A stretch of 64,000 nucleotides of DNA from an uncultured Veillonellaceae bacterium (GCA_963805085.1 CAWDTA010000002.1:480001-544000); one strand, 5' to 3'. Positions 1-62,448 are shown, numbered from the stretch's first letter. Numbers and translations are program-made. Notes: generated by a model from the letters alone, not told the origin.

Positions 1-165
1 TGAAGTAGTGTGACCTGTCGTCGTCACGGATGAATCCGACAAATTTAAAATACCGCCATTGGTGACTTTAACCCCGGACTCATCGGTATTAGAAGTAGTA
101 TATGCCTGATTCTTCACGGTTGTAGCCCCGCCACTTTGATAGTACGCCATAGATTCTGTACTCAT
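1..165 (-). CDS. N-terminus of a Thr/Ser/Gly-rich, possibly beta-helical protein (runs off the window)
   Basis: ATG at 165 with AGGAGGAG RBS; open to the window edge: MSTESMAYYQSGGATTVKNQAYTTSNTDESGVKVTNGGILNLSDSSVTTTGHTTS. Not in the ORF track. Confidence 0.6.
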   Translation of the reverse strand, partial: MSTESMAYYQSGGATTVKNQAYTTSNTDESGVKVTNGGILNLSDSSVTTTGHTTS

Positions 166-568
166 TATTCTCTCCTCCTAATTCTAATAATATTTGTCTG
201 AAAAATTCAGAAAACCAATATAACCAAGAAACTCATCTTATTTACCATGTGTTTTCTGTATATTGACTTTCACTTATATACATTTATTCAAGCTTAATTT
301 TTAAATGGGTAAAACTAAAAATCTATAGATTCATTGATAAAACAAAAATATTAGAAATAAAAATTACGCATTAGCACATATAAAATAAACGATATTTAAG
401 ACAGATAAAAGCTCTCCTTTCGGTAGCTGGTTATTATGATTTAACCTGCCTGCCATAGGGGAGCTATTAATTAGCTGCTAGTTGTGCCTTTTTCCGCGAA
501 ATATTTCCAATCGAACTTTAGAGACTCCATATTCCTTGGTTTGCTTTCCTCCTCTAATGATTCCTTTT

Positions 569-793
569 TTAATTCGCATAGATAATGTCTCTAAATTCTT
601 CAAATGGAATCTCGTCAGCTATTTCAGTGACTTGACCAACTAGCGAAAAATTATATATATTAACTGCATCTTTCCACTTGATCATCACATATTCTTTGCA
701 ATTTAAATCTATAATGAGTTTAACTGTAAAATCAGCGTTCTTTGTTTCTTCAGCAATAATTGTGTCTTTTGTTGTTCTATAGATTTTATACAT
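569..793 (-). CDS. hypothetical protein (74 aa)
   Basis: ORF with GAGGT RBS; downstream hairpin near 410-465; no recognisable motif. Confidence 0.5.
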   Translation of the reverse strand: MYKIYRTTKDTIIAEETKNADFTVKLIIDLNCKEYVMIKWKDAVNIYNFSLVGQVTEIADEIPFEEFRDIIYAN

Positions 794-1034
794 TTACAAA
801 ACCTCTATTTCCCAAAAAGACATATCTTGTCCCTTGTAAATAGAATGAACCTCTCCCTTTGGTTGTGGCGAGGAGGCTTCCTCGCCACACGCTGGTGCGA
901 TACTTTGACCACAGCTTTTTACTACTTTGTACTGATACCAATTTTATATCCCCCTTCATCATTCTGTAGGAGGTTTCTTCTATCCGCTGACACAGATAGA
1001 AAAAACCAGCATACAGTTTGTTTCAGGGGAAATT

Positions 1035-1075
1035 AAAAAAGCGCATGCGAGGTTATTCCAACCTACACATGCGCT
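1035..1075 (-). terminator. intrinsic terminator/attenuator upstream of ORF 569-793
   Basis: AGCGCATG...CATGCGCT stem followed by a U-run on the minus strand. Confidence 0.55.
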
Positions 1076-1157
1076 ATACTTCATCTTGATTGCATGCAGA
1101 CGCTAAGCCTCTGCCAAAACTCCAATCGTATTATACCGGACGAACGGACTATCTCCC

Positions 1158-1186
1158 TTGTAATCAAGGGAAAAGCACGGTATAAT
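1158..1186 (+). promoter_or_regulatory. sigma70-type promoter
   Basis: TTGTAA-17 bp-TATAAT. Confidence 0.6.
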
Positions 1187-1191
1187 AAATT

Positions 1192-1285
1192 GTCGTCGTA
1201 GACAGCTAGCTGTTACGTGTAGGTGCCAACACACCTGCTCGTGCCTGTGAGTGCTCTAACACTCTCAGGACACGGCGACTTTCTT
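1192..1285 (+). ncRNA. candidate multi-branched small RNA
   Basis: Closing stem GTCGTCGT/ACGGCGAC encloses three hairpins and ends in a U-rich tail; directly downstream of the promoter; no ORF. Confidence 0.45.
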
Positions 1286-1367
1286 AATTTCCACCTTATT
1301 CCTTAATTATAATCCATTTTTTAATGATTGCAAGTAAAAGTAAGTCGAAAATATGATTTTTTTATAT

Positions 1368-1417
1368 AGAAAAAGCGAGGTTAGCGGATTTTTACGTCCG
1401 TCGACCTCGCTTTTTCT
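1368..1417. terminator. bidirectional intrinsic terminator downstream of ABC-F
   Basis: AGAAAAAGCGAGGT...ACCTCGCTTTTTCT inverted repeat. Confidence 0.75.
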
Positions 1418-1518
1418 TTATCAACTTACCATGAATCTAGGAACACTTCAAAGCGTTTAAGAAGCTTCATGTAGATGTTATTAGGGTGTACCCCTGACTT
1501 TGTGCAAACTCCAATTGG

Positions 1519-1560
1519 CATAGGAAAGCTTGAGGATATAGCGAGTCCAGACAATTTATT
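1519..1560 (+). repeat. 42-bp exact direct repeat, copy 1
   Basis: CATAGGAAAGCTTGAGGATATAGCGAGTCCAGACAATTTATT, identical to 8225-8266. Confidence 0.9.
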
Positions 1561-1595
1561 TAATCAATAATATTTGCAAGAATAAAAATTAGAAG

Positions 1596-3515
1596 CTAGG
1601 AACCGTTTATTTTTAGCCATTCCTGATACAGTGCCCCCTTAGTATCTTCCCATTCTTTTTTTTGCAAAAGTAAAGGTTCCATCGTAAGAAAATCGCTGCC
1701 ACATAATTGCATTCGAGTTTCTAGAGCAGCAAGTGCTGATTCTAGTTCCTGAATAGCGTTTTCAATTTTTTCAATTTCTACAATAGCCTTTTTAGAAATA
1801 GTTTCTGTATGTACGGAAACAGGTAGTTTTGTAACAATTCTGGAACTTTTATGAACATCAGTTATTTTGCCTTCCGTATGCCTAGTCTGATATTCTAACT
1901 GCTCATTTCTTATTTTTTTTTGTAGGTAATAATCATAATTACCATCATATTTAGTTAATTTACCATTCTTTAATTCCCAAATTCGAGAAGCAAATTTGTT
2001 AATAAAATATCGGTCATGAGATACAAACAACACAGTGCCTTTAAAATCATCTAATGCTTTTTCTAGCCATTCTCGTGAATCGATATCCAGATGGTTGGTC
2101 GGTTCATCGAGCAATAGCAGATTAACGTTGTTTTGCATCATTAAGCAAAGCCGCAGTCTACTCTTCTCTCCTCCAGAAAGTTTACCTGTCGTCCTATATA
2201 CGCCTTCACCTTTAAAACAATATCTTGCTAGTATGTGGCGGGCATCATTTTCGCTTATATCTAACTCATAGCTTACTGTTTCCAGTACACTAAGCATGGG
2301 GTGTGAAAAAGTAACTATTTGTGGCAAATAAGCATACTTGATACTATTGCCAAGTTTAACTTCGCCAGCGTCAGGAATTATTTCGCCAGTAATTATTTTT
2401 AATAATGTAGATTTTCCAGAGCCGTTTATACCCAACAAGACAGTCCTTTCACCTCTATACAAGGTAAAGTCGAGACTGTTAAGAATATTATGATCGTCAA
2501 AGTTTTTACTTAGATTCTTGGCAACAAGAACTTCCTGCCCTGAGAAAGTATGTTCGTTAAATTTCGTTTGCATTCGTTGCTCATATTGTGGTCGCTCGAC
2601 TTTTTCCATCCGCTCAATGCGTTTTTCCATGTTTAAGGCTCTTTTGTGCAGAGACGGACTATCGCCACGTTGTGCCCACTCATGCAATTGTTTGGCTGAA
2701 TTTTGCATTCGCTTAATTTTTTTTTGTTCTTGATTAAATTCCTCTTGACGCTGTAGACATCGAGCTTTTTTTTCAGCCACAAAGTATGAATAGTTACCTT
2801 CATATAGATCGATTTTTCCGTCAGATAATTCAACAATACGAGTTACTACTTGATTAAGAAAATATCGATCATGAGATATGACAACGACAGTCCCCTTATA
2901 TTCGTGTAAGAATTTTTCCAACCATTCGATAGCAGTAACATCCAGATGATTTGTTGGTTCGTCGAGCAGGAGAATTTGCGAATTATTAATCAATAATCTG
3001 CCTAACATAACCCTTGTTTTTTCCCCACCGCTCAACATAGAAAAATTAGTCGCTAATAGTTCGGAACTGAATCCAAGACCAGTACACACCTTCTTAATGT
3101 TTTCTTCCATTTCATAGCCATGCCTAGCTTCAAAGTTTTGTTGCAGGTGCCCGTACTTTTCCAAGGTATTATCAATATCGGTGACATCAGTCATTGTTTG
3201 TTCCAATGCGATCATTTGAGCTTTAATTTCAAGTAAATCACTATAAGCTGAACAAAGGGCTTCATATGCAGTATAATCCTCAGGAAAGTCGGTGAATTGT
3301 TCCAAAACGCTCACGAGAGATCCTTTTCGAATCATTACCTCTCCGTTGTCACTTGGAATAACACCTGCCAATATATTTAATAAGGTTGTTTTCCCTGTCC
3401 CATTTTTACCTAATAAACCAATTCGTTCACCTATTTGTATTTCAAAAGTAACTCCCTTGATCAAATGGTCGGCACCATAGTATTTTTCAATGTCACGCAA
3501 AGCTATTTCAATCAT
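1596..3515 (-). CDS. ABC-F family ATPase (ribosome-associated, possibly ribosomal protection type)
   Basis: Two ABC domains (GKNGTGKT, LSGGE, LLLDEPTNHLD twice), linker and C-terminal coiled coil, no TM segments. Confidence 0.9.
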   Translation of the reverse strand: MIEIALRDIEKYYGADHLIKGVTFEIQIGERIGLLGKNGTGKTTLLNILAGVIPSDNGEVMIRKGSLVSVLEQFTDFPEDYTAYEALCSAYSDLLEIKAQMIALEQTMTDVTDIDNTLEKYGHLQQNFEARHGYEMEENIKKVCTGLGFSSELLATNFSMLSGGEKTRVMLGRLLINNSQILLLDEPTNHLDVTAIEWLEKFLHEYKGTVVVISHDRYFLNQVVTRIVELSDGKIDLYEGNYSYFVAEKKARCLQRQEEFNQEQKKIKRMQNSAKQLHEWAQRGDSPSLHKRALNMEKRIERMEKVERPQYEQRMQTKFNEHTFSGQEVLVAKNLSKNFDDHNILNSLDFTLYRGERTVLLGINGSGKSTLLKIITGEIIPDAGEVKLGNSIKYAYLPQIVTFSHPMLSVLETVSYELDISENDARHILARYCFKGEGVYRTTGKLSGGEKSRLRLCLMMQNNVNLLLLDEPTNHLDIDSREWLEKALDDFKGTVLFVSHDRYFINKFASRIWELKNGKLTKYDGNYDYYLQKKIRNEQLEYQTRHTEGKITDVHKSSRIVTKLPVSVHTETISKKAIVEIEKIENAIQELESALAALETRMQLCGSDFLTMEPLLLQKKEWEDTKGALYQEWLKINGS

Positions 3516-3787
3516 GAAACATACCTACATAAAGCAGCACTATTCGTTGCTTTGCATATATTTTTGCTTCCAACATGCATTCCCCCTTAATCAAGACATT
3601 GCGTTAACAAGCAAATTTTACATTACATTTAAGCTACGAATATTTTTATTTCAACTAAATTGTCCACTGCTCATCTTCCTTATTTATTCCTATTTACATT
3701 AAAATACCATAATATCCAATAAAGAACAACAGGTTTATATGAGCCATTAATCAATGAATATTTTTATAACTTTAATAAAAATATTTA

Positions 3788-3842
3788 TTGATTAAAATTG
3801 TAAATAATGGTAAATTAAATATAAACATATATGTTTATATTT
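3788..3842 (+). promoter_or_regulatory. promoter of the peptide/ThiF operon with a palindromic operator
   Basis: TTGATT-17 bp-TAAATT with TGn extension; perfect 26-bp palindrome AAATATAAACATA/TATGTTTATATTT at 3817-3842. Confidence 0.6.
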
Positions 3843-3861
3843 GTAAAAGGAGGAATAAAAG

Positions 3862-3921
3862 ATGTCTATTAAAAAAATTGCTAAAACATCTACAATTGCA
3901 TCAATTACTCATAGAAGCTAA
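3862..3921 (+). CDS. putative RiPP precursor peptide MSIKKIAKTSTIASITHRS (19 aa)
   Basis: Strong RBS AAGGAGGA, ATG...TAA, first gene before a ThiF-like enzyme; too short for the ORF track. Confidence 0.8.
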   Translation: MSIKKIAKTSTIASITHRS

Positions 3922-3982
3922 TTCCTTGGTGGAAGCATCATAGTGCTTCTATCCATTTTGTTTGTTAAATAATAACAATAAT

Positions 3983-4023
3983 TTGCAAAAAGGACTAGCA
4001 TAAAATGCTAGTCCTTTTTGCAA
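3983..4023 (+). terminator. hairpin between the precursor and ThiF genes
   Basis: Perfect 18-bp arms TTGCAAAAAGGACTAGCA / TGCTAGTCCTTTTTGCAA, 5-nt loop. Confidence 0.8.
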
Positions 4024-4043
4024 GCATATCAATATGAGGAGAG

Positions 4044-5084
4044 TTGAAAATGAGATATACCTTTTCACCATTAGCTCTTTTTTTTCAAAATGTAGAAGAT
4101 GTATTTATTATATATAACGACGAAATTTTATGTATTGAAAATTGTACTGATGATATTTTAAAGGGTATTGCATTAATTAAAAGAGGATGTACTGATACAC
4201 AACTAATACAAGAATTAGGTAAAGAAGAGACAACTAAATTAATAAATTCAATGCAAGATTTTGATTTAATAAGAATTAACTATAAAAACGAATTTTCAGA
4301 AAATATAGTAGAACGACAAATTTACTTTTTCGATACCCTATCACAAAACCCAAATGAAATACAAAAGAATCTTCAATCAAAAAGAATTTGTATTTTAGGA
4401 ATGGGTGGTGTAGGATCAATTGTATTCCAACACTTAATTGGAGCTGGTATCAAGTCGTTCATTATTATTGATAGCGATATTATTGAGGTATCTAATTTAA
4501 ATAGACAATTTATGTTTAACTCAACACAAATAAATCAATTAAAAGTTGAAGCAGCAAAAGAATATGCAAAAAACATAGATGCTAATATTGATGTTAGTGG
4601 ATATGCTAAATTTATTAATTCAATAGAAGATTTATATTTTTTAAAAGAGAATAAAATTGATTTTTTTGTTTGTGCTGCTGATTTACCGCCTGGCAAGATT
4701 CAAAATATTGTTGGCGAATTTTGCAAAGAAAATAAGATTCCATTTTCTTTTGGGTCTGTAGGAATAAACTTTGGTTCATGGGGACCATTGATTATACCAG
4801 ACAAAAGCATATGTTGCTACGATTGTTTTCGCCGCGAAGAAGAAAGGTTAATGTCAGATGTGGAAAAAAGGATATTAAAATGTGCAAATGAAGTTATAAA
4901 AGCTTCATTTGGGCCAACTAATACTGTGATTTCTGCTTTTTTAGCAAAAGATATTATTATGTTTCTATCTGGAAGTAAAGATATTCAAACAATGAATACT
5001 CGAACTTATTTAAACTTCCAAACAATGGAAACTACAAGAGTTTCAGGAAAATCATGCAAATGTAAAACTGCTATAAATTTTTAG
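4044..5084 (+). CDS. ThiF/MccB-like (E1-family) adenylyltransferase
   Basis: ERQ motif, GMGGVG, DSDIIEVSNLNRQ, CYDC plus C-terminal Cys; N-terminal extension that could bind peptide; start may be ATG 4050. Confidence 0.9.
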   Translation: MKMRYTFSPLALFFQNVEDVFIIYNDEILCIENCTDDILKGIALIKRGCTDTQLIQELGKEETTKLINSMQDFDLIRINYKNEFSENIVERQIYFFDTLSQNPNEIQKNLQSKRICILGMGGVGSIVFQHLIGAGIKSFIIIDSDIIEVSNLNRQFMFNSTQINQLKVEAAKEYAKNIDANIDVSGYAKFINSIEDLYFLKENKIDFFVCAADLPPGKIQNIVGEFCKENKIPFSFGSVGINFGSWGPLIIPDKSICCYDCFRREEERLMSDVEKRILKCANEVIKASFGPTNTVISAFLAKDIIMFLSGSKDIQTMNTRTYLNFQTMETTRVSGKSCKCKTAINF

Positions 5085-5087
5085 ATA

Positions 5088-6350
5088 ATGGAGAATCAAG
5101 TGAATAAAATGTTGGATTATTATAATAATTTAATTAGTATTAACAAAGATATAGTAAAATTAAATATATCTTCTTTTTTTTACAGTTTGTTTTTTGATAG
5201 GGCAATTTGGACATTATTTTTATTAGAAAAGGGATTAGATGGGTTACAGGTAGGTCTTGCAGAATCTTTGTTACACATATCAATTGTTTTATTCGAAGTA
5301 CCTACAGGGATCATAGCCGACATTTATGGGAGAAAAATAAGTTTAATTATTTCGAGGATAATTTCTATTATTTATGCTGTAGGATTAATGTCTGTGAATA
5401 ATATTTGGAGTATCTATTTTATATTTATTCTATTTGGATTAGGATCAACATTTTCCTCAGGGTCGGATACTGCGCTTCTATATGATTCTATAAAAGGTAA
5501 TAAAAAAGAAAAAGATAAACAATTCACAAAAATTAACGGTTACTATGGTGCATTTATTACAGCAGGTTTGACCTTAGGCATGTTTTGTGGCGGATTTTTA
5601 CAGTCTGTATCATGGAATACGGTATATCTTTATATAGCAGTAGTTCAAGTAATATCAATTATACCATTAATAAATATGACAGATAACTCTGGGCTAGTTA
5701 AGGCAAAACAGGGAAAAAACCAGGATTTTTCTTTCCTCGTTTGCTTAAAAAATTTAGTTATCAGTAATCTAATTGTTTTTAAAAATCGTTTATTTTTTAC
5801 TTTAGTAATAGGGATAGTTATTTTTACCGCGACAATTAATACACTTTATCTATTTATTCCAATCTGGTTTAAGGAGCAGGGATTTGATGAAATAATCATA
5901 TCTCAAATATTTACACTAGATTCTATTATTGGAATTATAGCTTATTCTTGTGCATATAAACTAGAAAAAAAAGTAAACATCTACACTTTATTGATAATAT
6001 TACCATTAATATCATTGATTGCTTTATTATTACTACCAATCACCAATAGTCTATCGCCTATATTATTCATCATTATTAACAATCTTGCAATTTTATTTTA
6101 TCCCTTATCCAGTGCCTTAATTAATAAATTAATAAAATCAGAAGAAAGAGCAACAATATTATCTTCAGTGAGTTTCTTAAGTTCAATAATTATAGCAATT
6201 CAGTTTCCTACCATTGGGTTTTTAACAAAATATATAGATACGGGATTTGTTTTATCAGGTCTTTCGATCTTTTGTTTATGTTCAATTATTTTACTTTGGC
6301 AAACCAATAGGAAGGGGATATTAAATTACAATGAAAAACGATATTCCTAA
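5088..6350 (+). CDS. MFS transporter (probable exporter)
   Basis: About 12 hydrophobic segments; EVPTGIIADIYGRK (motif A). Confidence 0.9.
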   Translation: MENQVNKMLDYYNNLISINKDIVKLNISSFFYSLFFDRAIWTLFLLEKGLDGLQVGLAESLLHISIVLFEVPTGIIADIYGRKISLIISRIISIIYAVGLMSVNNIWSIYFIFILFGLGSTFSSGSDTALLYDSIKGNKKEKDKQFTKINGYYGAFITAGLTLGMFCGGFLQSVSWNTVYLYIAVVQVISIIPLINMTDNSGLVKAKQGKNQDFSFLVCLKNLVISNLIVFKNRLFFTLVIGIVIFTATINTLYLFIPIWFKEQGFDEIIISQIFTLDSIIGIIAYSCAYKLEKKVNIYTLLIILPLISLIALLLLPITNSLSPILFIIINNLAILFYPLSSALINKLIKSEERATILSSVSFLSSIIIAIQFPTIGFLTKYIDTGFVLSGLSIFCLCSIILLWQTNRKGILNYNEKRYS

Positions 6351-7827
6351 TGATAATATTTTGGTGTTTAGCGTTGATACTGATTTTTTAACACTAGATC
6401 CTGCACTTGTCGATGATTATATCGGTTTAATTGTCTGTCAATCTTTATTCGAACCGTTGCTTATATTAGATCATAAAACTGGAGAAATCATTCCAGGTGC
6501 AGCAAAACATTATAAAATTTTGGATAATGAAAAAACATATATATTCTATTTAGACGAAAACAATAAATGGTCAAATGGCGAAACTGTAACAGCATTTGAT
6601 TTTGAATTTGCATTTAAAAGAATTATAGCTGCTAAAGAAAATTCTGGCGTCAGTTCATTAATTTTAGACATACTAAATTCTAATCAAATTATTAATAATA
6701 AAGTAAACGTAAATGAACTAGGAGTAAAAGCAATTGATGAATATATATTTGAAATAAAACTAAAAAGACCAGTTTCTCATTTTTGTGAATTACTTACTAA
6801 TCCTAATTTTGCGCCTGTTCCGCACAATGTTATCCGTATGCATGGCGATGCATGGATGCAACCGCAAAACTTTGTTTCAAATGGTCCGTTTATTCTAAAA
6901 GAATTAAAACGTAATAAATATATATTTGTTGAAAAAAATCCATATTATTTTAACAGTAACAATAAACAAATTCAAGGAATTAGGTTTTTAATTAATAACG
7001 ATTTCAATAAACAAATTAAATCTTATGAAGAAAATAATATTCACGTAACTTGCAATACGTTATTTCCGTATAATTTAATTGAGAATTATAAAAACTGTTT
7101 AGATTTTAATATAGAACCGTTTCTTTTATTATCATATATTAATATAAACTTTGCTAAAGGAGATTTCATAAATAAAAAAGTAAGACAGATGTTATATTAT
7201 GCAATCGATAAAGAATATATTGCTGATAAGTTATCGAATGGAATAAATTCAAATTATGATTTTGTTCCGTTAGGAATTAAAAATTATAAGCCAATTAATC
7301 CAATTTCTTATAATCCAGAAAAAGCAAGAAAAATATTATCCGAGTTCCCGAACATAAAGCGTACATATGAATTAATTTATGCAGATTTCTATCCTAATAA
7401 GGAAATCCTATCATACGTATCAAAATTCTGGGAAGAAGTATTAAATATTAAAGTAAATCTTCTCCCTGTATCATTTGACTGTCTTATAGATAAATTGTGT
7501 AATAATAATTTTGATTTATGTCTTTCATTAATAGCAGCAAGATATAATGAGCCATCAGCATATTTAGAAGATTTCGCCAAACCTAGTTTACTAATGAATA
7601 AGTATGACGAATATAATAAATTATTAGTAAAAGCAGTTGAGACACATAATGCAACTATAAAAAAAGATATCTACAAAGATATTAATAATATTCTTATTGA
7701 TATCTTACCTATATTTCCCTTGTTTTCTTTCAATAGTATATATTTGAAAAAACCCTATATAAAAAATTTTAAAATATTTCCTTGCGGTCATTTTTCATTT
7801 AGAGATTTAGATATAGAAAAAATTTAG
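6331..7827 (+). CDS. OppA-like peptide-binding protein (SBP family 5) with no signal peptide
   Basis: TLDPA, KWSNGETVTAFDF, SNGPF motifs; no hydrophobic leader or lipobox; no permease genes nearby. Confidence 0.85.
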   Translation: MKNDIPNDNILVFSVDTDFLTLDPALVDDYIGLIVCQSLFEPLLILDHKTGEIIPGAAKHYKILDNEKTYIFYLDENNKWSNGETVTAFDFEFAFKRIIAAKENSGVSSLILDILNSNQIINNKVNVNELGVKAIDEYIFEIKLKRPVSHFCELLTNPNFAPVPHNVIRMHGDAWMQPQNFVSNGPFILKELKRNKYIFVEKNPYYFNSNNKQIQGIRFLINNDFNKQIKSYEENNIHVTCNTLFPYNLIENYKNCLDFNIEPFLLLSYININFAKGDFINKKVRQMLYYAIDKEYIADKLSNGINSNYDFVPLGIKNYKPINPISYNPEKARKILSEFPNIKRTYELIYADFYPNKEILSYVSKFWEEVLNIKVNLLPVSFDCLIDKLCNNNFDLCLSLIAARYNEPSAYLEDFAKPSLLMNKYDEYNKLLVKAVETHNATIKKDIYKDINNILIDILPIFPLFSFNSIYLKKPYIKNFKIFPCGHFSFRDLDIEKI

Positions 7828-7969
7828 CAACCGATATTAGCAGGTAAAAACATCTGCTGAATTTCATGACAAAAAAATGGTAACAGCCTACATGCACTCA
7901 CATCAGTTCCAATTCCGCCTCCTATCATCACCACAAGTATTCTGTAATTGCGTGATACGAAGACACATA

Positions 7970-8833
7970 TCAATCCTCCAATATGCGATAAATCGCCTTT
8001 GCTACACCATGTTCTGCATTACTTGCAGTTATATATTTTGCCACTTTTTTAATTTCCGGTATTGCATTTCCCATAGCAAATGAATTTGGAAACTCTACAA
8101 ACATTGAATAATCATTGGAACTATCACCTAAAACAGCGACTTCTTCTTTTCTTATCCCTATTTTTTCTGCAACTTTAGCTAATATGCGTCCTTTGGTGGC
8201 ATTAACATCATTCACTTCAATATTCATAGGAAAGCTTGAGGATATAGCGAGTCCAGACAATTTATTCAGCGCTTGCTTAAGCACATTGATCTCATCAATT
8301 GACCCTGCAAAAGAAACAAATTTACCTATATTTATATCACTTTTCAAGAACTCCTGCAAATTTGTTATGTATTTCATCTTAGCAAAATGAGGATGCGTTA
8401 TCGCATGTTGATAAATTTCATCTGAATCTATAAGCGCGGGATAAAAAGCTTTTACTCTTTCTATCATTCCTTTTAAGGTTTTTTCCTTTGTATTCGTTGT
8501 ATAATATCCATCATCGGTATATATTTCAGCAGCTGCATCATAATTTGCCATTATATTTAAAATTTGAACTGCTATACTTTTATCAATATAGATCCCTGCA
8601 ACGATCTCACCGGCAATATCCCTATATTCTCCGCCATTTAAGACAACGCATTCACATGTTAAGCCACACTCATCTAAGAATGGTTTAACATCTTCATATG
8701 CTCTGCCGGTTGCAATCGCAAAGACAATACCTTTTTCTTGTGCCATTTTTATAGCTGCTATATTTTCCTTTGATATTTTTCGATTCGTTCCTATTAAAGT
8801 TCCATCCATATCAGATGCAATCAATTTTATCAT
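7970..8833 (-). CDS. Cof-type HAD-IIB phosphatase
   Basis: DMDGTL, ATGR, GDSSND, AMGNA motifs; start likely ATG 8833. Confidence 0.92.
   Translation of the reverse strand: MIKLIASDMDGTLIGTNRKISKENIAAIKMAQEKGIVFAIATGRAYEDVKPFLDECGLTCECVVLNGGEYRDIAGEIVAGIYIDKSIAVQILNIMANYDAAAEIYTDDGYYTTNTKEKTLKGMIERVKAFYPALIDSDEIYQHAITHPHFAKMKYITNLQEFLKSDINIGKFVSFAGSIDEINVLKQALNKLSGLAISSSFPMNIEVNDVNATKGRILAKVAEKIGIRKEEVAVLGDSSNDYSMFVEFPNSFAMGNAIPEIKKVAKYITASNAEHGVAKAIYRILED
8225..8266 (+). repeat. 42-bp exact direct repeat, copy 2 (inside the Cof gene)
   Basis: Identical to 1519-1560. Confidence 0.9.
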
Positions 8834-9015
8834 TTTAAAACTCCTCGTACACTTTCTTAAATTAATTACTTTTAACAATATACCTAATTATAAGTTTACC
8901 TATATTTTATTTACTACATATTTTTATAATGTAAAAGCTTAAATAACTGATTTATCACTTATATGAGCAATAAAAATCTGGTGTAACCCTTTATCGAGGC
9001 AGCACCAGATTTTTA

Positions 9016-9648
9016 TTATTCGCTTACTTTGGCTTGTTCCAATTCAGCAACATACGCTGTCATTACAGAATCTATTTTATCCAAAACAAAACTACGTGTG
9101 AAAATATCAATCTTAAAATTTTCATCTTCATCATCATTGCGAGATATCTTAAAGATAAGCGGCACGCTCGTACCTTCATAGGTTACATTAGCTTGACAAT
9201 TTTTATCAATGTCTTTTTCTGCCTTGCGAGCAGCATGAATAACACGTTCTTGCTCTATTGGATCAAGGTCCTTATCAAAAATCCCATTTAAACGTTCAAT
9301 AAACCCATTGATTTCAAGAATTGAGTCAAGCACAATTGTTGCTTGCTCGACCTCATACATTTTTTCGGGATAATACTCCTCAATAAAAGCACGCATATCA
9401 GGATTATCTTCATAATCTTCAAGCTCGTCTTTTTTTCCCAATAACGTTTTTCCCCAGCTAATGATTTGTAAGATCGGCAAGCAAATAAACATCAAAAAAA
9501 AGGCTATTTTAAGCATATTATCGTTCACCGGCATTTGCGAGTTCAAATAGCGTTCTAATACTGCCATATCTTTTCTATCTTTATAATATAGACCACCTGC
9601 AATGATAATATACAATGCTAGACTTAAACTAACTACCAAGCTATTCAC
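9016..9648 (-). CDS. hypothetical membrane protein
   Basis: Two N-terminal TM segments, acidic C-terminal domain; terminator hairpin near 8972-9014. Confidence 0.7.
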   Translation of the reverse strand: MNSLVVSLSLALYIIIAGGLYYKDRKDMAVLERYLNSQMPVNDNMLKIAFFLMFICLPILQIISWGKTLLGKKDELEDYEDNPDMRAFIEEYYPEKMYEVEQATIVLDSILEINGFIERLNGIFDKDLDPIEQERVIHAARKAEKDIDKNCQANVTYEGTSVPLIFKISRNDDEDENFKIDIFTRSFVLDKIDSVMTAYVAELEQAKVSE

Positions 9649-9869
9649 CCCAAACTATCGCATCGAACAAACTGTCCCTTTGATATTAATTTATATAATA
9701 AATTCTATTATAGCATATTTTTAAATCCAACTGCTTTTTGCTATAACGATTATTCAATATTATACTTCGTTTCTTTGTATACATGAAACCTACAAAATAA
9801 AACTAGGCTACGCGAGGCGATTCATCCATGCGTAGCCTAGTTTAGTTTATTTATCTTAGTAATTACTGT

Positions 9870-11438
9870 TTATTTTTCTATTTCTACACTTGCCTCAAAC
9901 ATTCTATTCCATGGAAAATCTACGTTTACTTTCGTAAAATCGAACCCTTGTAGATGGTCCTTGGCAAAGGCATTCATTTTCTCATTGGCGGATTTTACAA
10001 TTGTCGGTTTTGCTAAATCGAGCTTGCTATAGTTGCCACCTTTTAAGTGATTTAGCTCCCCAGCAAGTGTTTGACGAATATTAGCTTGATAAGCCCAGTC
10101 ATCCATAAGTCTAACACTAAGCAGGCGATTTTTATCTTCCAACTTCATCTTATCTACTAAAATGCCTTGACCAATAGCAAAACCAGCACTATTGTTCGCA
10201 GTATTCCAACCAGAATATGCCGCTAATTTATTTAATAATCCCTGTTTCTCAAGCTCTGACATCAACGCATTATCTGCTCCATTTGCAAAAGAGATATCCG
10301 CAATGGCAACAGGATAGCCACAATTTAAATACCGCTTGACTTCATTAACAAAAGCTTTGGTATTAGCATGTACTGCGGTTGTATTCGTTGGATAGTTAGC
10401 CTCAGATGTCACTCCATCCTTAGCGGTATTTACCAACAATACCAAATCAGCACGTTCCGTCGTTGGAACAGGAATTGCCCCACTAGCAAATAAATGTGAT
10501 TGAATGGACTTTCCGATTGCCTCGTCAGAATAAGTCGGCACCGTATCAGCGCCAACCCCCTCAGCGTAACGCACCGCGACAAGCGGAATATGCCAATTTA
10601 AATCATTACTTGCCCGTGTTAACAGAACCATCCCCATTTCATCAATACCAGCTAAAGCCTGGAACTTTGACACGCCCAGCTCCTCGCCTTGACTACTGAG
10701 CAAACGACTTTCTTTATGGGTCTGTGAAAACGGCGCGTTGTCATCGCGACCAAGCGCTAGATATTGAAATACATTGCTTTTTGCAAGTTCTACCAATTTT
10801 GTATTGGCTGCAAAATTTTTGCTTCGACGATCCATCCAGTCGCTAACTGCCTCTTTTGGAACACTTTTTTCTAATTTTGCAACTTGTCTCTTTTCCGCTC
10901 TTGTTAGACGATCGCTTTCTTCTTTATCTTGCAAAGAAGTTAAGGTAAAAATATCTGGTCCATATTTAGCATAATAGCTAGGTTCTTCACCGCCGTCACT
11001 GCTCCTTGGCGAACGCATAATGGAACCAAATACATAGATTTTTAAATTAGGGTTTTCTGCGTGCAGCTTTTCAAAATTATCTACACGTTTTAAAACAGCT
11101 TCACTCGTTAACGTATGTTTACGAGAAGCAACTAAACTGCCATAAAGGAGGGAATCCGACGATAAAACAACAGCATCCGTCTTCTTTGCATTGGTAAATA
11201 ACCATTGCCAAAGTTCCTCTGGTTTTCCTAAGGAGGTTCGGCTACCTAACAATTCTGTGGGTGGCACGAGTACATCATAGTCAAGTTTCTTTACCGTATC
11301 CAATGTTTGCGCAAACGAAATTGGACGGTCATCATGCGGAATAAAGATGATTTGTGGCCTAATTGCCGCGAATACTGGCACCTCAGCAAAAGCCGTATAA
11401 AAACACAAAACAAAAACCATAAGTACTTTTTTATACAA
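9870..11438 (-). CDS. DUF4127-family exported protein
   Basis: Signal peptide; PHDDRP, YGSLVASR, DEMG, AYSGWNTANN, FPWNRMFE motifs. Confidence 0.8.
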   Translation of the reverse strand: MYKKVLMVFVLCFYTAFAEVPVFAAIRPQIIFIPHDDRPISFAQTLDTVKKLDYDVLVPPTELLGSRTSLGKPEELWQWLFTNAKKTDAVVLSSDSLLYGSLVASRKHTLTSEAVLKRVDNFEKLHAENPNLKIYVFGSIMRSPRSSDGGEEPSYYAKYGPDIFTLTSLQDKEESDRLTRAEKRQVAKLEKSVPKEAVSDWMDRRSKNFAANTKLVELAKSNVFQYLALGRDDNAPFSQTHKESRLLSSQGEELGVSKFQALAGIDEMGMVLLTRASNDLNWHIPLVAVRYAEGVGADTVPTYSDEAIGKSIQSHLFASGAIPVPTTERADLVLLVNTAKDGVTSEANYPTNTTAVHANTKAFVNEVKRYLNCGYPVAIADISFANGADNALMSELEKQGLLNKLAAYSGWNTANNSAGFAIGQGILVDKMKLEDKNRLLSVRLMDDWAYQANIRQTLAGELNHLKGGNYSKLDLAKPTIVKSANEKMNAFAKDHLQGFDFTKVNVDFPWNRMFEASVEIEK

Positions 11439-11456
11439 AAGCTAACTCCTCCTTCT

Positions 11457-12134
11457 TCACTTAAGAATATTTTGCAACATATTTTTAACTGTATCAGGTA
11501 AGTTAAGAGCAGTTTTAAATTCTACATACCCATCTTTAGGCACAGCTTGTTCAATAACAACAGCATCACTCAGGGAATAACCAAATAACTCTGCCTGACC
11601 AAAACTTGACTCTTTCAATGCATCTTGAAAATCTACCGTTACAGTATTGCCAGAGATCTTCGTCTTAACCGTATCGCCAAGATTTACTTTGCCAACAAAT
11701 TTTTCCGCCATTGATAAACTTATCCGCGAAAAAATCCAGGACATGGTCCCATTGTCAGGTAAATCTTTTTCTAACACTTTAAACTTTAAAACTGAAGTAT
11801 CTTTACTATGCTCAAATTGTTCAATCCGGCATAATAATATCACCTTGCCAATTTTTTTCGTATCCGCTGTTAGCTTCATTTTACCATCACCAACAGAAGT
11901 AACTTGCAGCGACTTAATAGCTGAATTCTCATCAATTGTTTTAGCAATGGATTCATTAATGGTCTCATCTGGAACTGAAAGTTTACCTTCTTTGAGCTGC
12001 TCTAACGTTTGCGTATCCCAAGTCTGACGAACAACATTAATCACGGGTGTTAAATTGTCAATCTGCCCGCTAAGATCACTAAGATTGATATTACCAAGCA
12101 TTTCACTTGATAGATCAATTGGCATATCTATCAT
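11457..12134 (-). CDS. hypothetical protein
   Basis: 225-aa ORF with GGAGG RBS, in operon with the DUF4127 gene. Confidence 0.75.
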   Translation of the reverse strand: MIDMPIDLSSEMLGNINLSDLSGQIDNLTPVINVVRQTWDTQTLEQLKEGKLSVPDETINESIAKTIDENSAIKSLQVTSVGDGKMKLTADTKKIGKVILLCRIEQFEHSKDTSVLKFKVLEKDLPDNGTMSWIFSRISLSMAEKFVGKVNLGDTVKTKISGNTVTVDFQDALKESSFGQAELFGYSLSDAVVIEQAVPKDGYVEFKTALNLPDTVKNMLQNILK

Positions 12135-12240
12135 ATTCTATGGCCTCCCTAATTTGTCCTAACTAATATTAGCATCTGTTTGCCAATTCATTATACACCA
12201 ACCATGAGGCAATTTCTATTTCCTTATTTTACAGACAACT

Positions 12241-12942
12241 CTAAACGGATTCTTTCCGCATATCTTGCCATAAATCACGGGCCAAATTATAAATAGCTGG
12301 CTCCATTTTTGAACGTTTTTCACCAATCACTCGGCTCAGATATTGAACTGCTTTTTCCGTATTGCCCGTTCTTCTATAGAGTTCACCAATCAAATACGTA
12401 GCCGCTGTATCGGTCATACTGCCGATTGGAAAACGTTCTGTTGTCAACGCTCTATCATATCCTTCTAAAGCTCTTATTAATACCTCTTGTTCTTTTTCCT
12501 TTGCCTCAGTGCTTGCATCGCTATCTTCCTCGCCAGCTTCACGATATAACCAAGCTAATTTCAAATACAGCCCTGCCTTGCGACTCTCTGGTGATTCAAT
12601 TAAATCTGCATAATAAAGTGCTAATTTAAATGCATTAATCGCATCACCTCTTGTTCTTACTTCCTTGTATTCAATTTTCACTTTTCTATCTTTTAAAAAC
12701 TGGATGATTTTCTCTTTTTCTTTTTCTCTCAATGTATCAAAATGCTTTTCATCTGAAGCATAACCACAATGCGAACATACCCAAATATCATAGTAATATG
12801 GATTAAACTCCTTGTAATGTACACAAAAATCGCTATCCTGTTTTATTTTAATCAATCGCGACCGTGTTTTAGTCACTTGAAACTTTTCCCCACAAATGGG
12901 GCATTCTCTCTCTACCGAATATGTAAAGCCTACTGCCATCAA
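12241..12942 (-). CDS. DUF2225-family protein (Zn ribbon plus TPR-like)
   Basis: CPIC...CSHC, LKLAWLYR, YLIGELYRRTG. Confidence 0.8.
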   Translation of the reverse strand: MMAVGFTYSVERECPICGEKFQVTKTRSRLIKIKQDSDFCVHYKEFNPYYYDIWVCSHCGYASDEKHFDTLREKEKEKIIQFLKDRKVKIEYKEVRTRGDAINAFKLALYYADLIESPESRKAGLYLKLAWLYREAGEEDSDASTEAKEKEQEVLIRALEGYDRALTTERFPIGSMTDTAATYLIGELYRRTGNTEKAVQYLSRVIGEKRSKMEPAIYNLARDLWQDMRKESV

Positions 12943-13394
12943 AGTTCATCTCCCTATTATAATCAACACCCATGTTAAATCTATTTCTTATCTACCCATG
13001 AATCTCCTAGTCGTTTCTCCCCCTCTTTTTCACGCCCAGCAGCAAATCACGTTGTCAACTTCATTTCTATATGAATAAAAATAAACCTTATGAACTATTC
13101 ACACTTGGACTATTGCTCTAATGATTGGTCACTATTATATATATCGAATAAAGTGCCAATTTCATAAACACAAACTTATAGAATACTCATTTTATTTTTC
13201 ATGTAAAAATCACCTAATTTTCCATTTTATCAGTAAAGAATATAATGTTTTACAATCAGAACCCACTTTTTTTATTTTTTTCTTCCAGAAAAAATGTTAT
13301 GATAATATTATCAAACATGTTAAAAGGATTTTACTCTTTTCTCAGTTTTATTGTAATCATCCAATTTTTAGCATATGAAAAAGGAGTATTTACG

Positions 13395-14048
13395 ATGGCA
13401 AAGATACGGCGCAAAGATATCAAAGAACAGCTTTTATCTGTTTGCAAGCCGGAAAAAAATCATATTATTTTTATTCCCCATGAACCGATCTTATCTGAAA
13501 TAAAAGGCTATGATAAAACAGAACTACACAATCTCCATAAAAAAGGGCTTATGTTATTACCACGAAGTTATATTGTTGCCAACGAATCTATCCCTGTTTA
13601 CGAAGAATATGATACCGTTTTCGATCATATTGATCAAGCGGTAAACTATATTGCCGACACCTGGAAGGTCGTCCCACTAAAAACAACTACCATTCTCCCA
13701 GTACACAGCTACCAATTTATGAACTTTATCAAAAAGCAATACCGTATCAATCTAAGCATCAAAGCCGCCAAGGATCAGCTTCTCACCCTTACGCTAGATT
13801 ACGATGCTGATAGAATCCTGGCGCTAGAGAAGCAGATTTCTTACAACCAAGGCAAAGCTCAAGTCCTTATGGATTGGTTCTGTGAGTGGATGAATGCAAA
13901 ATCCTTCCCACTGATTGATTACAGTGCAGAGTTTCGTGATGTCTTATTTGAAACCTGCGTAAAAGAATTTGAAACACTATTAGAGCAAGGCCTAATTTAC
14001 AAAGACGAATACGATACCTTCCATTACCTGTGGTTGGATGATAAATAA
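13395..14048 (+). CDS. hypothetical protein
   Basis: AAGGAG RBS before ATG 13395 (shorter than the ORF-track call); convergent terminator near 14053-14096. Confidence 0.7.
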   Translation: MAKIRRKDIKEQLLSVCKPEKNHIIFIPHEPILSEIKGYDKTELHNLHKKGLMLLPRSYIVANESIPVYEEYDTVFDHIDQAVNYIADTWKVVPLKTTTILPVHSYQFMNFIKKQYRINLSIKAAKDQLLTLTLDYDADRILALEKQISYNQGKAQVLMDWFCEWMNAKSFPLIDYSAEFRDVLFETCVKEFETLLEQGLIYKDEYDTFHYLWLDDK

Positions 14049-27712: not shown

Positions 27713-28474
27713 TTAGGCTCTCGAAATCACACTTTGGCTAAAGCCACTGACTCTTGATAGTTGACAAGTAGAAATACTATCGATGTTTTTCAATTCGTGC
27801 AGCATTTCGTTCCGCTTAACTTTCGCAATACCAGTCAACTCTTCTAGCGTTTTTACTCCAGCCATGCGCAAAATCAATAGTTTCAACTCAGCGTCGATCA
27901 TCTTTTCACGCGTCGACTCTAAACATTTTTCTTCCGTTGGCTCGTTCATATATTTTTTAAAAGCAATATTCGCTTTTGCTGTCGTATTACCCATTAAGTT
28001 TAAGCAATAGTTACTATCCACCAATACTGATTTTGCTACATATTCGCCATAACTACTATAGGTATACTTACTAACTTCTGTAGCAATCCCCAGCCTAACT
28101 GGCTCTTGATGGATATACCTTAGTACGGTGAATAGATAGTCATCATCCTCGACAACTTCACTCTTAAATCGGTCATGGAAAAGCTGCCCGGTGCGGCTGT
28201 ATTTGCCGTTATACCAAGCTACATATTTCACGCCGATCCGCTTCATCATATTACCGATTTTCGTCGTACCTTCTTTTATTAATAAGTGCAAATGATCATC
28301 CAATAAACAATACCCATAAACTTGATATTGACAGACATCAACATACTCTGACAACAGTTCCAAAAATTTATCCTTATCACTATGATCGGCAAAAATTGAT
28401 TGATGATCAATTCCCCGTATAATAATATGATAAATACCTGTTGCGCTATAGACTCTAGCTTTTCTTGCCACCAA
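27713..28474 (-). mobile_element. REP-associated tyrosine (HUH, Y1) transposase, RAYT-like, with C-terminal HTH
   Basis: YHIIIRG, HLHLL (HUH), GQLFHDRFKSE, RYIHQEP; downstream hairpin near 27661-27714. Confidence 0.88.
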
Positions 28475-57707: not shown

Positions 57708-58560
57708 AGTAGACGACTATTTTTGTCTTATTTTGTTATTTTATTTACCCTGTCCTTATTAATTCCTGTGATCTCTGCTATTTTTCTTAATGGTAAATTT
57801 GTTTTCTCTTTAAATTTTTTCAGTTTCTCTTCTAAGTTCTCTTCACTTTTTGCAAGCTCATTCCATAACTTTATTGCTTGGCTTTCTTCCATTCGATTTG
57901 CTTTTTCATCTATTTCAATAAATTTATCTTCTTCTTTCATATTTGTGAATTTGATAAACTCTTCTTTTGCTTCATTTTTATCTTCTGAAAATATTCCTAG
58001 AACTAATTCTTTATCTATTGCCTTTGCTAAAGCAGTATCTTCTTCTATATAGCCTTTATAACTACTCCATTTATATTTTTCTGCTTTTTTCACGATGCCA
58101 GCTTTGACTGGATTTTTATGAATATACCTTGTTGCCATTAATAGATAGCTATCATCTTCTATTTTTTCGCTTCTATATCTATCTTGAAATAGGTGGCCTG
58201 TCTTTTTATATTTTTTATTAAAGTAAAAGACATAGCTAATATTGATTCGTTTCATTATATTAGCTATGTCTTCTTCTCTTTCTTGCAATAGCAAATGGGC
58301 ATGATTATCCATTATGCAAAATGCAATAAGACCATATCTGTTATTTTCTTTTTTCGTTTTTAGTATTTCTATAAAGTGCATTTTATCTTGGTCATCTATG
58401 AAGATATCTTTTCGATCGTTACCTTTTATCACTATATGGTAATACCCTGTATTACTTTTATCTCTTTGCTGTCTTGGCATGATAATCCACTCCTTTTTTC
58501 CCCAGATTATCATACCAGATTAGTTTAGTCAAGACAAAAAGAACCGTCACCTCGTCTACT
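57708..58560 (-). mobile_element. RAYT-type HUH transposase element (CDS 57728-58480) with related inverted ends
   Basis: YHIVIKG, HAHLL, GHLFQDRYRSE, RYIHKNP; the left end AGTAGACGA..TTTTGTCT mirrors AGACAAAA..TCGTCTACT (58532-58560). Confidence 0.85.
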
Positions 58561-59085: not shown

Positions 59086-60105
59086 ATGAAAAAAAACAAA
59101 TGTAGTAATCTTGAAAAAATTGAATTTCAGCTTACAACTTCGTGCAACATGAAGTGCAAATTTTGTTTTCATGGTGATGAAGTATCTTACCAAAGATTAG
59201 ATACTGATGTAGTATGCAAGTCTATCAAAGAACTCACATTTCAAACAAAATCAGGTTATCCTTATGCAAATCTAAAGTCTGTATGGCTGACTGGTGGAGA
59301 GCCTCTGTTAGAAATGGAGGCCGTTTCAGAAATCATTAAAATAAGCAAATCTATGAATTTAATAACTGTCATAAGCACAAATGGACTCCTTCTTGAAAAA
59401 AATCTTGATCAATTACTGAAATCTGGTTTGGATGAAGTTAAAATTTCATTAGATTCGCTAGATACTAATTTATTTCAAAACCTTAGAGGTGGATCGCTGT
59501 CAACCGTTCTAAATAATATTAAATTAGTAGCAAAGACTCCTATAAAAACACATATTAGAATAACAGTGAACAATGACAATGTTAATAGTATTGGTAACAT
59601 TGTTGAAGAAATGGCAGATGTTGGCCTTGCTACTATTGAACTTAAAGCGGTTCTTCCAATAGGTCGTTCTGATTTTAGATTCATGCCTAATCACAATATA
59701 CTAGAAAAGGCAATAAACGATGCAATAAAAAAAATACCACCAAATAAGGCAACTCCATATGTAACAACGATATGTAATTATCTTGCTCCATGTAAAGGAT
59801 TTTCTGTTAGTCCAAATATCCCTTGCACTTGTAGTCACTCATCACTTTATATAGCTGCTACTGGAGATATCCTTCCCTGTGGGTATTTTCCAAAAGAAAG
59901 TCAATATAATATTTATCGCGATTCTCTTTTAGATGGATGGACAGGTTCCTTTTTTAATACTATAAGAAACAGTGCTCCTGAGAAGTGTACAACATGTAAA
60001 GACTGGGATTTATGTAAGAATGGATGCCCAGCAGTGCTTTATAACCATGGTGACCTTAATAACTCTTGTTTTGAGCTCATTACTGAAAAAATAGCAAAAA
60101 ATTAA
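59086..60105 (+). CDS. radical SAM enzyme with SPASM domain
   Basis: CNMKCKFC, TGGEP, TNG, ISLD; SPASM C...GDILPC...CTTC...CKNGC...C. Confidence 0.92.
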   Translation: MKKNKCSNLEKIEFQLTTSCNMKCKFCFHGDEVSYQRLDTDVVCKSIKELTFQTKSGYPYANLKSVWLTGGEPLLEMEAVSEIIKISKSMNLITVISTNGLLLEKNLDQLLKSGLDEVKISLDSLDTNLFQNLRGGSLSTVLNNIKLVAKTPIKTHIRITVNNDNVNSIGNIVEEMADVGLATIELKAVLPIGRSDFRFMPNHNILEKAINDAIKKIPPNKATPYVTTICNYLAPCKGFSVSPNIPCTCSHSSLYIAATGDILPCGYFPKESQYNIYRDSLLDGWTGSFFNTIRNSAPEKCTTCKDWDLCKNGCPAVLYNHGDLNNSCFELITEKIAKN

Positions 60106-60171
60106 TTATTATTGGTCATTGTCAATAATAATTAATGATAATCTATTTTACATTTTTAGGAGAGTATTTTC

Positions 60172-61383: not shown

Positions 61384-62448
<1,065 letters not shown>

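Follow-up and report, generated by a model that had tools for sequence, protein, structure and literature searches.

In the microcin C systems (MccA/MccB/MccC and their Bacillus, Yersinia, and cyanobacterial analogues), a short precursor gene is accompanied by a hairpin and by the genes for an MccB-type enzyme with a peptide clamp and for an MFS pump; the hairpin raises the precursor transcript relative to the downstream genes, and the terminal Asn of the precursor is required for the succinimide and the N-P bond. ThiF-like enzymes have brought five peptide chemistries to light in a few years (phosphoramidate, indolizidinone, thiolactone, imide, and indolylamide), and so far each new precursor motif has meant a new reaction. 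Specifically, the product is a thiolactone in the case of GrcB, an imide in that of EnfB, and an indolylamide in that of IndF, all from precursors that lack a terminal Asn (PMC12596934, PMC12250964); GrcB links the side chain of a Glu with the Cys at the terminus (PMC12596934, PMC12250964, PMC13361665). Here, we describe a four-gene operon at positions 3,788 to 7,827 of a 64,000-nucleotide stretch of DNA, hereafter the window, from an uncultured Veillonellaceae bacterium (GCA_963805085.1 CAWDTA010000002.1:480001-544000), which codes for a 19-residue peptide, a ThiF-like enzyme, an MFS transporter, and an OppA-like protein. The operon probably makes a ribosomally synthesised peptide with post-translational modifications (RiPP) of an uncharacterised MccB/ThiF-dependent subfamily, a judgement that takes in the steps of transcription, docking, and adenylation proposed below and stops short of the beta-lactone considered after them. 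As far as sequence comparison can tell, the marks of this subfamily are a precursor end of the form hydrophobic-Val/Thr-x-Arg-Ser/Cys/Thr and a cytoplasmic OppA-fold protein encoded together with the enzyme.

The parallel with mccA-hairpin-mccB-mccC had been drawn in the original prediction, made from the sequence alone, which had nonetheless placed the operon outside microcin C, and it was right on both counts. The window operon has the microcin C layout of precursor, hairpin, enzyme, and pump, and its enzyme joins a peptide clamp to a ThiF adenylation domain with the ATP, Mg, and Zn residues; likewise, a conserved short precursor lies beside a ThiF enzyme fused to a RiPP recognition element (RRE), the arrangement by which ThiF-dependent RiPPs are recognised. 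Microcin C membership was nevertheless rejected: the window peptide ends in Ser, and an Asn terminus occurs in none of the 17 related locus types, so that the succinimide route to the N-P bond is closed to the family. Moreover, the window carries no MccD, MccE, or MccF gene, and a cytoplasmic OppA-fold protein is not described in mcc clusters (PMC4010828, PMC12250964). The prediction had gone on to see a paradox in the Ser terminus and to propose a new RiPP type. The paradox dissolves, because ThiF-like enzymes acting on non-Asn peptides (GrcB, EnfB, and IndF) were already known; no description of the family was found in print, as the prediction had supposed, but for the same reason it is better called a new subfamily, some members of which end in Arg-Cys like the GRC group.

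The ThiF-associated precursor groups in print are, in PMC12250964, PMC12596934, PMC11256085, and PMC12150305, microcin C, pantocin A, GRC, WWIII, NWYFI, VEGR, NICxxxK, CxxxC, and GxxQY, and none of those listed there pairs an Arg-Ser/Cys/Thr motif with an OppA-like partner. The literature searched yielded nothing on the motif, on a ThiF enzyme with an OppA-like partner, on a RiPP pathway that uses an intracellular OppA-fold partner, or on a ribosomal beta-lactone; further unnamed ThiF clusters, which may include this family, are listed in Table S1 of PMC11256085 and Figure S1 of PMC12150305. Thus delimited, the ThiF-dependent subfamily is very probably new, with an unprecedented partner protein and with GRC/GrcB as the nearest characterised system. 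Its minimal four-gene version is small enough to be studied with a synthetic 19-mer and two proteins.

The peptide gene and its conserved terminus

The short open reading frame (ORF) of the prediction proved real, yielding the same residues on translation, and so did its strong ribosome-binding site, an eight-base Shine-Dalgarno match (Table 1). The encoded peptide of 19 residues has an Arg-Ser terminus, is net basic, and contains neither Asp nor Glu. The single strong hairpin announced behind it is two hairpins, although the strength of the structure stands: the segment 3919-4049 folds with an energy of -50 kcal/mol versus a shuffle mean of -22.7 (z = -8.3), and none of 200 shuffles was as stable. 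By analogy with mcc, these hairpins would leave the transcript of the peptide gene in excess over those of the downstream genes. The ThiF, MFS, and OppA-like genes that follow, all three identified as such by Pfam in keeping with the prediction (PF00899, PF07690, and PF00496), are tightly packed or overlapping; all four operon genes are intact in the window, and no protease gene is found among them by ORF and Pfam annotation, again as predicted. The island is AT-rich as had been noticed, with a G+C content of 24-29% across 3501-8000 versus 31-44% in both flanks, which points to a foreign origin. The predicted promoter, in turn, was indistinguishable from chance, as this AT-rich stretch holds 31 promoter-like hexamer pairs versus 35.8 expected, none of them prominent. 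Public sequencing data that match the stretch amount to seven DNA runs, taken from metagenomes of groundwater, soil, and aquatic origin; parts of the stretch are present in six, and no RNA run is listed.

Precursor genes were searched for as ATG ORFs with a ribosome-binding site upstream of each fetched ThiF homologue, the sample comprising 40 loci fetched from the genome collection, 18 metagenome loci, and 22 streptococcal ThiF loci from 151 Streptococcus genomes. In the genome collection, a short ORF ending in Arg-Ser/Cys/Thr lies beside the ThiF gene in 7 of 17 loci examined, whose hosts are Bacillus atrophaeus, Rummeliibacillus pycnus, Bacillus changyiensis, Achromobacter aloeverae, Streptococcus danieliae, Thermoactinomyces mirandus, and Trinickia mobilis. 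The same ending was met in 10 of the 23 loci of a second set (16 of the 18 metagenome loci plus seven genome loci), an Arthrobacter included, in two further metagenome loci out of five loci scanned, there about 2.2 kb upstream of the ThiF gene, and, as Arg-Cys, in two of 21 streptococcal loci examined. Once duplicates are collapsed, 17 locus types remain, from Bacillota, Actinomycetota, Pseudomonadota, and metagenomes, with Ser as the terminal residue in five, Cys in eight, and Thr in four; Ala or Gly never takes this place. Their five C-terminal residues are, in order, a hydrophobic one, Val/Thr (Ala once), a variable one, Arg, and Ser/Cys/Thr: a sharp motif in which a terminal beta-hydroxy or beta-thiol residue follows an invariant Arg in three phyla. 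A shared C-terminus of short ORFs upstream of ThiF homologues was the check that the prediction had set for itself, and the outcome is positive. For comparison, when 935 similar ORFs from either strand of these loci are considered, 37 have such an ending, a figure that counts in the true precursors and nested starts.

The terminal residue swaps among Ser, Cys, and Thr even within small, well-supported clades, as where L004 (Cys) groups with L016 and L045 (both Thr) with a Shimodaira-Hasegawa-like approximate likelihood-ratio test (SH-aLRT) value of 100. In the Rummeliibacillus locus (L002), the peptide gene is present in three tandem copies that differ at five nucleotide positions, Arg and Ser codons among them; since all the differences are synonymous, they are direct evidence of translation and purifying selection. 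Furthermore, a stem-loop separates the peptide gene from the ThiF gene in all 11 loci folded (z from -1.7 to -8.3), and in seven of these none of 200 shuffles was as stable. Besides the window, three loci (L002, L014, and L046) have basic precursors devoid of Asp and Glu, and all four of these precursors carry Thr or Ser at positions 9-11. The other precursors are acidic and fall into groups of 15 to 50 residues, and Asp or Glu is placed four to ten residues before the end in 13 of the 17 precursor types. Every precursor has an internal Ser or Thr within ten residues of its end, in a position that is not conserved across the family. No precursor was found at eight cyanobacterial loci or at L015, L017, L018, L020, L041/L042, and L047, and neither the longer precursors nor the divergent OppA-like proteins match any NCBIfam model.

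Two further kinds of streptococcal peptide were encountered. At L070 and L082, which belong to the uncharacterised VEGR type, peptides of 16 residues are encoded about 270 nt upstream of the ThiF gene; their first seven residues are identical to those of the window peptide, after which they diverge and end in Arg, so that to judge by the alignment they look like a common leader on different cores. The VEGR-type ThiF clusters (PMC11256085) share with the window this beginning and a short Arg-containing core, but their peptides end in Arg, and the peptide and ThiF genes are accompanied by those for an ArsR-type regulator and an ABC transporter, without an OppA-like gene. L066 and L069 represent a cluster type made of ThiF and MFS genes, with 19-residue peptides that end in Gly-Ser-Cys and no OppA-like gene.

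Table 1. Coordinates of the operon, its signals, and the divergent neighbouring gene (window positions)
Feature	Position	Strand	Basis
ABC-F ATPase gene, divergent, adjoins the operon	1596..3515	-	NCBIfam NF000355, ribosomal-protection-like ABC-F, 530 bits versus a cut-off of 380
Shine-Dalgarno match, eight bases	3846..3853	+	Seen in the sequence itself; ends eight bases ahead of the peptide-gene ATG
Precursor peptide gene, 19 codons and stop	3862..3921	+	Translation; homologous short ORFs that share its C-terminal motif
First hairpin, 11 pairs and then a T-rich tail, terminator-like	3928..3953	+	Folding and simple terminator scan
Second hairpin, 19-20 pairs, immediately 5' of the ThiF ribosome-binding site, terminator-like	3983..4023	+	Folding and simple terminator scan
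MccB-type ThiF-like adenylating enzyme, 344 aa	4050..5084	+	PF00899, E 3e-40
MFS transporter, presumed exporter	5088..6350	+	PF07690, E 3e-30
OppA-fold (SBP_bac_5) protein, 498 aa, predicted cytoplasmic	6331..7827	+	PF00496, E 6e-59

The ThiF-like enzyme and its OppA-like partner

The ThiF-like enzyme has few close relatives: in a collection of 5.8 billion sequences, only 14 proteins match with an E of 1e-5 or lower, and, leaving aside the window protein itself, ten do so at 1e-44 or lower. In an alignment of 11 homologues, the glycine-rich nucleotide loop, Arg152, Lys165, Asp211, and four Cys (256, 259, 336, and 338) are invariant or nearly so, and the spacing of Arg152, Lys165, and Asp211 is that of the EnfB residues reported to be essential for ATP and Mg binding (PMC12250964). 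Among proteins of solved structure, a profile of these homologues ranks E. coli MccB first (E 7e-46), followed by eukaryotic E1 enzymes and then PaaA (1e-21). Similarly, the AlphaFold model (predicted local distance difference test, pLDDT, 88) superposes on MccB over its whole length, peptide clamp included, with a template-modelling (TM) score of about 0.8 over 342-355 columns, PaaA ranking second. The model places an N-terminal domain of four strands and three helices, predicted to be the RRE or peptide clamp, before the adenylation domain. Because the nucleotide-loop, ATP, Mg, and Cys residues are conserved and both profile and model resemble MccB, the protein is a catalytically equipped MccB-type enzyme and no mere docking scaffold. 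By fold and family, the N-terminal part of the peptide would dock on this predicted peptide-binding domain, and the enzyme would activate the terminal Ser with ATP by adenylation of its alpha-carboxylate, the sole adenylation site that a peptide without Asp or Glu offers; the conserved ATP, Mg, and Zn residues argue for the same step.

The OppA-like gene had been taken for an ordinary one in the prediction, which its properties do not bear out. The protein aligns with mature Salmonella OppA from residue 15 to 498 (E 6.5e-55), the alignment opening at residue 15 of mature OppA, and its model (pLDDT 84) has OppA, MppA, and DppE as top fold matches, with TM scores of about 0.8; with the NCBIfam OppA model it gives 3e-63, far under the model's cut-off. 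Like these extracellular proteins of ABC importers, it therefore has the full OppA fold of the SBP_bac_5 family (cluster C). It differs from them in lacking a signal peptide, a lipobox, and adjoining opp-type permease or ATPase genes; the ORF begins at its first possible start codon, no in-frame start being available further upstream, and no secretion-signal N-terminus was seen among the related OppA-like proteins inspected.

The position of the gene is just as constant. In nearly every related locus, the gene immediately 3' of the ThiF gene, often overlapping it, codes for an OppA-like homologue of 395-505 residues, and profile searches join these proteins as homologues, including those without a Pfam match. 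When a profile built from 11 of them was run on all ORFs of 150 residues or more in 89 loci, 16 of the 17 locus types with the Arg-Ser/Cys/Thr ending proved to have a homologue, and seven of the 16 had contributed nothing to the profile. The one type without it is that of Trinickia, in which the ThiF and MFS genes also look truncated, and the only other ThiF locus type with a homologue is L041, on a contig that ends 0.9 kb before the OppA-like gene. The same scan found none in the cyanobacterial loci, in the WWIII, NWYFI, VEGR, and Gly-Ser-Cys types, or in the microcin-C-like streptococcal locus. At L049, an IS605-type transposase and a resolvase occupy the OppA-like slot (6185-8069), and an otherwise matching metagenome copy (L058) has the gene there, at 5863-7050. 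From the missing signal peptide, the presence in 16 of 17 locus types, and the occurrence in only one other ThiF type, the OppA-like protein emerges as the hallmark partner and most specific marker of the family, and not an importer. Its role, once established, would show the re-use of a transport protein inside the cell.

As for what the protein might bind, OppA Asp419 and His371 presumably anchor the amino terminus and serve the carboxyl end of the ligand, respectively. The counterpart of Asp419 is Arg in the window protein and variable in the family, and the sole invariant polar residue of the family, Asn356, aligns with His371. This pattern suggests a cleft that is retained but re-tuned, possibly for the C-terminal end of the peptide. 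The OppA-like protein would hold that end, whether as a partner in biosynthesis or to shield it and protect the producer. A prediction of its complex with the ThiF enzyme, both entered as alignments, scored 0.00 in both runs, which had no controls, and speaks neither for nor against binding. The MFS gene is likewise present in most related loci, and the pump is expected to export the product.

Several observations speak against the reading proposed here. The only invariant residues of the OppA-like family are Gly185, Pro355, and Asn356, none of which looks catalytic, and the role of the protein could therefore be one of protection only. In a quick tree, the Arg-Ser/Cys/Thr loci do not form one clade, requiring five label changes versus a least possible number of two; cyanobacterial and other ThiF genes nest among them, and the deep nodes are weak. 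The motif may thus have been gained or lost more than once, or the tree may lack resolution. (The tree leaves out L021-L023 and L033 as short, L046 for a stop in its ORF, L030 and L034 as long, and, as weak or duplicate, L024-L029, L031, L032, L035-L040, L042, L050-L052, and L055-L058.) Moreover, in the only other genome of the same genus that was examined (L060; G001:C150), the stretch equivalent to window 3831-5018 is cleanly deleted, which takes out the peptide gene together with both hairpins and the greater part of ThiF, with the promoter region fused to the last ~22 ThiF codons at this first junction; match coordinates place a second gap at about 6738-7614, in the middle of the OppA-like gene. 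The ABC-F and MFS genes of this locus are retained at 98-99% identity (MFS 99%). With these two gaps, the operon is dispensable and may be decaying in this lineage.

The same deletion, along with the low G+C content, would suit an operon that is a decaying remnant, and a Thr/Ser/Ile-rich short ORF followed by terminator-like hairpins resembles the leaders of amino-acid operons, in which case the ORF would be a regulatory leader with attenuation at the hairpins; under either explanation no modified peptide would be made. We regard this as very improbable, since conservation sits in the C-terminal motif and not in a run of regulatory codons, the three tandem copies under purifying selection fit a precursor, and in the window all four genes are intact and the catalytic residues of the ThiF enzyme are kept.

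Proposed fate of the C-terminus

If the peptide is indeed the substrate of a RiPP enzyme, an intramolecular group would capture the acyl-adenylate, with loss of AMP and a net change of -18 Da. The beta-hydroxyl or thiol of the terminal residue probably takes part, because Ser, Cys, and Thr interchange in this place even in close relatives and Ala and Gly never occur there. Self-capture of the activated carboxyl to give a C-terminal beta-lactone or thiolactone is our leading single guess, and a tentative one; it is modelled on the succinimide step of MccB and on OleC, which converts a beta-hydroxy acid into a beta-lactone in an ATP-dependent reaction (PMC8597713). The comparison with OleC concerns the way of working: a carboxylate is adenylated and then attacked by a beta-hydroxyl (PMC8597713), and a C-terminal Ser or Thr is likewise a beta-hydroxy acid. 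OleC itself belongs to the unrelated ANL superfamily and acts on lipid substrates, and a lactone in the window system is only a guess.

A fuller scenario, which we consider rather unlikely as a whole, makes the beta-lactone or thiolactone a warhead, the four preceding conserved residues its substrate-like address for a target hydrolase, and the OppA-fold protein the guard of the labile end until export. If true, a beta-lactone would for the first time be made by a ribosomal route, the ThiF family would gain a reaction, and a binding protein of the transporter type would have taken on a task not seen before. The ring itself meets several objections, as a four-membered ring is strained, we know of no ThiF-family enzyme that forms one, and a natural beta-thiolactone from Cys is, to our knowledge, without precedent; in addition, the internal Ser or Thr close to the end of every precursor means that a macrolactone may be formed instead.

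That last point leads to a macrocycle of the IndF/EnfB kind, in which an internal Thr or Ser hydroxyl, a Lys amine, or a backbone nitrogen would attack the adenylate to give a lactone, a lactam, or an imide, and Arg-Ser would serve as a recognition tail. Macrocyclisation is the documented outcome for EnfB and IndF, the two enzymes of the ThiF-like kind whose substrate is a terminal carboxylate not belonging to Asn (PMC12596934, PMC12250964), and the Thr or Ser at positions 9-11 is kept in the four basic precursors. It remains an unlikely reading for this family, as it leaves without a reason both the restriction of the terminal residue to Ser, Cys, or Thr, to the exclusion of Ala and Gly, in 17 locus types and the interchange of these three in close relatives, and as the internal Ser or Thr has no fixed position in the family. 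As systems, EnfB (enterofaecin, WWIII) and IndF (NWYFI) resemble the window operon in that a terminal carboxylate other than that of Asn is adenylated and a ring closed with loss of water, and in their minimal clusters, of which enf has no protease; they differ in their hydrophobic, Trp-containing precursor motifs and their ABC-type transporters, and the OppA-like partner is not found in streptococcal loci of the WWIII and NWYFI types.

A ring of the GrcB type, from a Glu side chain to a terminal Cys, is the characterised reaction of the sole studied system with a Cys-ending precursor, in a group named GRC (PMC12596934, PMC12250964, PMC13361665). It may hold for the 13 precursor types whose Asp or Glu is four to ten residues away from the end, which share the acidic-residue feature of GRC in form. 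For the window peptide it was rejected for want of any acidic residue, and it is impossible for L002, L014, and L046 on the same count; since, moreover, the grc cluster is described with two radical S-adenosylmethionine (SAM) enzymes, a separate RRE, and no OppA-like gene, a comparison made by description, we give this ring next to no weight as an explanation of the subfamily. The kinship with GRC (GrcA/GrcB) is plain in other respects: a ThiF-like enzyme with an RRE acts on a precursor whose terminal Cys is the nucleophile, and the name suggests, together with residue numbers in reviews, an Arg-Cys end like that of 8 of the 17 types here. What sets the window system apart from GrcB, by description, is its Ser terminus without an acidic residue and its OppA-like gene, which is not described in the grc cluster; within window positions 1-14000, no radical SAM gene, separate RRE, or quorum-sensing (Rgg) regulator was found.

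The loss of 18 Da is predicted alike by the beta-lactone, macrocycle, and oxazolone routes, and not by nucleotide transfer. The latter would make the product a peptide-nucleotide other than microcin C: AMP would shift to the beta-hydroxyl or thiol through a six-membered transition state, giving a stable O- or S-linked Trojan-horse warhead that peptide degradation in the target cell would free, and the cytoplasmic OppA-like protein would shield the producer. MccB as the closest solved relative and the mcc-like layout are in keeping with such a product, and the seven initial residues shared with streptococcal peptides of another ThiF group fit a part for uptake or recognition joined to a variable end; OppA-family proteins are, besides, the usual entry route for compounds of this sort. 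We find this, too, distinctly improbable, since no ThiF-family enzyme is known to make an O- or S-link, no MccD-, MccE-, or MccF-like gene lies in the window (the methyltransferase of the related locus L048 has only generic matches), and a warhead freed by total proteolysis would have no need of the conserved Arg or of the three residues that precede it.

In the oxazolone route, the carbonyl oxygen of the Arg would attack the adenylate, and the beta-heteroatom would then either cyclise onto what had been the Arg carbonyl, to give a terminal azoline-4-carboxylate, or be lost by elimination, to give a dehydro residue leading to a C-terminal Arg amide. Ser, Cys, and Thr are precisely the residues able to form azolines or to beta-eliminate, and the peptides of the sister group (VEGR type) end in Arg itself (PMC11256085). 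OxzB, a ThiF-nitroreductase fusion, forms oxazolones from N-acyl amino acids (PMC12596934), and at L045 a nitroreductase-family gene lies between the OppA-like and MFS genes. That gene is found in just one of the 17 locus types, however, and the route is a construction of our own without enzymatic precedent on peptides, for which we see a slim chance. The weight not assigned to the beta-lactone and the alternatives above falls to some other follow-up reaction or to none.

Related clusters and genomic surroundings

Several related clusters are larger than that of the window. A B12-dependent radical SAM enzyme occurs with a DUF5825 protein at L002 and L014, and such a pair C-methylates peptides in clavusporin biosynthesis (bioRxiv 10.1101/2024.01.23.576971, PMC12257519); JmjC/cupin hydroxylases are encoded at L001, L002, L003, and L019, a radical SAM enzyme with a 2-oxoglutarate (2OG) oxygenase at L054, and an M3 oligoendopeptidase at L085. 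To judge by their families, these additions are typical RiPP tailoring genes, and the window cluster would be the minimal form. The most elaborate arrangement noticed is that of L048 (847-9584; also L051 and L053), which comprises an acyl-CoA-ligase-like gene, a 30-residue precursor ending in Arg-Ser, a phosphoenolpyruvate (PEP)-utilising kinase-like gene, the ThiF gene, a methyltransferase with a weak pyridoxal phosphate (PLP)-dependent decarboxylase-like tail, an unidentified 366-aa protein, and the OppA-like gene. A reading of this methyltransferase and its tail as a pair of the MccD/MccE type was considered and dropped as unsupported, the matches being to methyltransferases in general.

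Next to the window operon, and divergent from it, lies the gene for an ABC-F ATPase, whose G+C content matches the flanks and not the island. ABC-F genes are also found inside related operons: those of L001 (9540-11165) and L044 (5782-7416) pass the NCBIfam ribosomal-protection-like model, and that of L003 (9450-11078) is recognised by Pfam. The window protein is 38% identical to the one inside the L001 operon. Partial or degenerate ABC-type ATPases stand at the same position at L041 and L085. By their family assignment, the recurrent ABC-F genes hint at a ribosomal target, and the window ABC-F may be linked to the operon; with three related operons containing such a gene and the window operon adjoining one, they are a testable lead on the target.

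On its other side, the operon adjoins a gene for a HAD-family hydrolase (7970-8878, minus strand), of which an 85% identical copy is present on the same contig (G000:C2:712023-712919). The rest of the window is ordinary chromosome, with hydrogenases and their maturation genes, galactose and phosphotransferase system (PTS) genes, and two IS200-like transposases. The latter, Y1 transposase genes at 27713-28474 and 57728-58513, both on the minus strand, bracket the sugar and hydrogenase region. Lastly, radical SAM, MFS transporter, and Asp/Glu racemase-family genes stand in a row at 59086-62097 on the plus strand and may form another small metabolite cluster.

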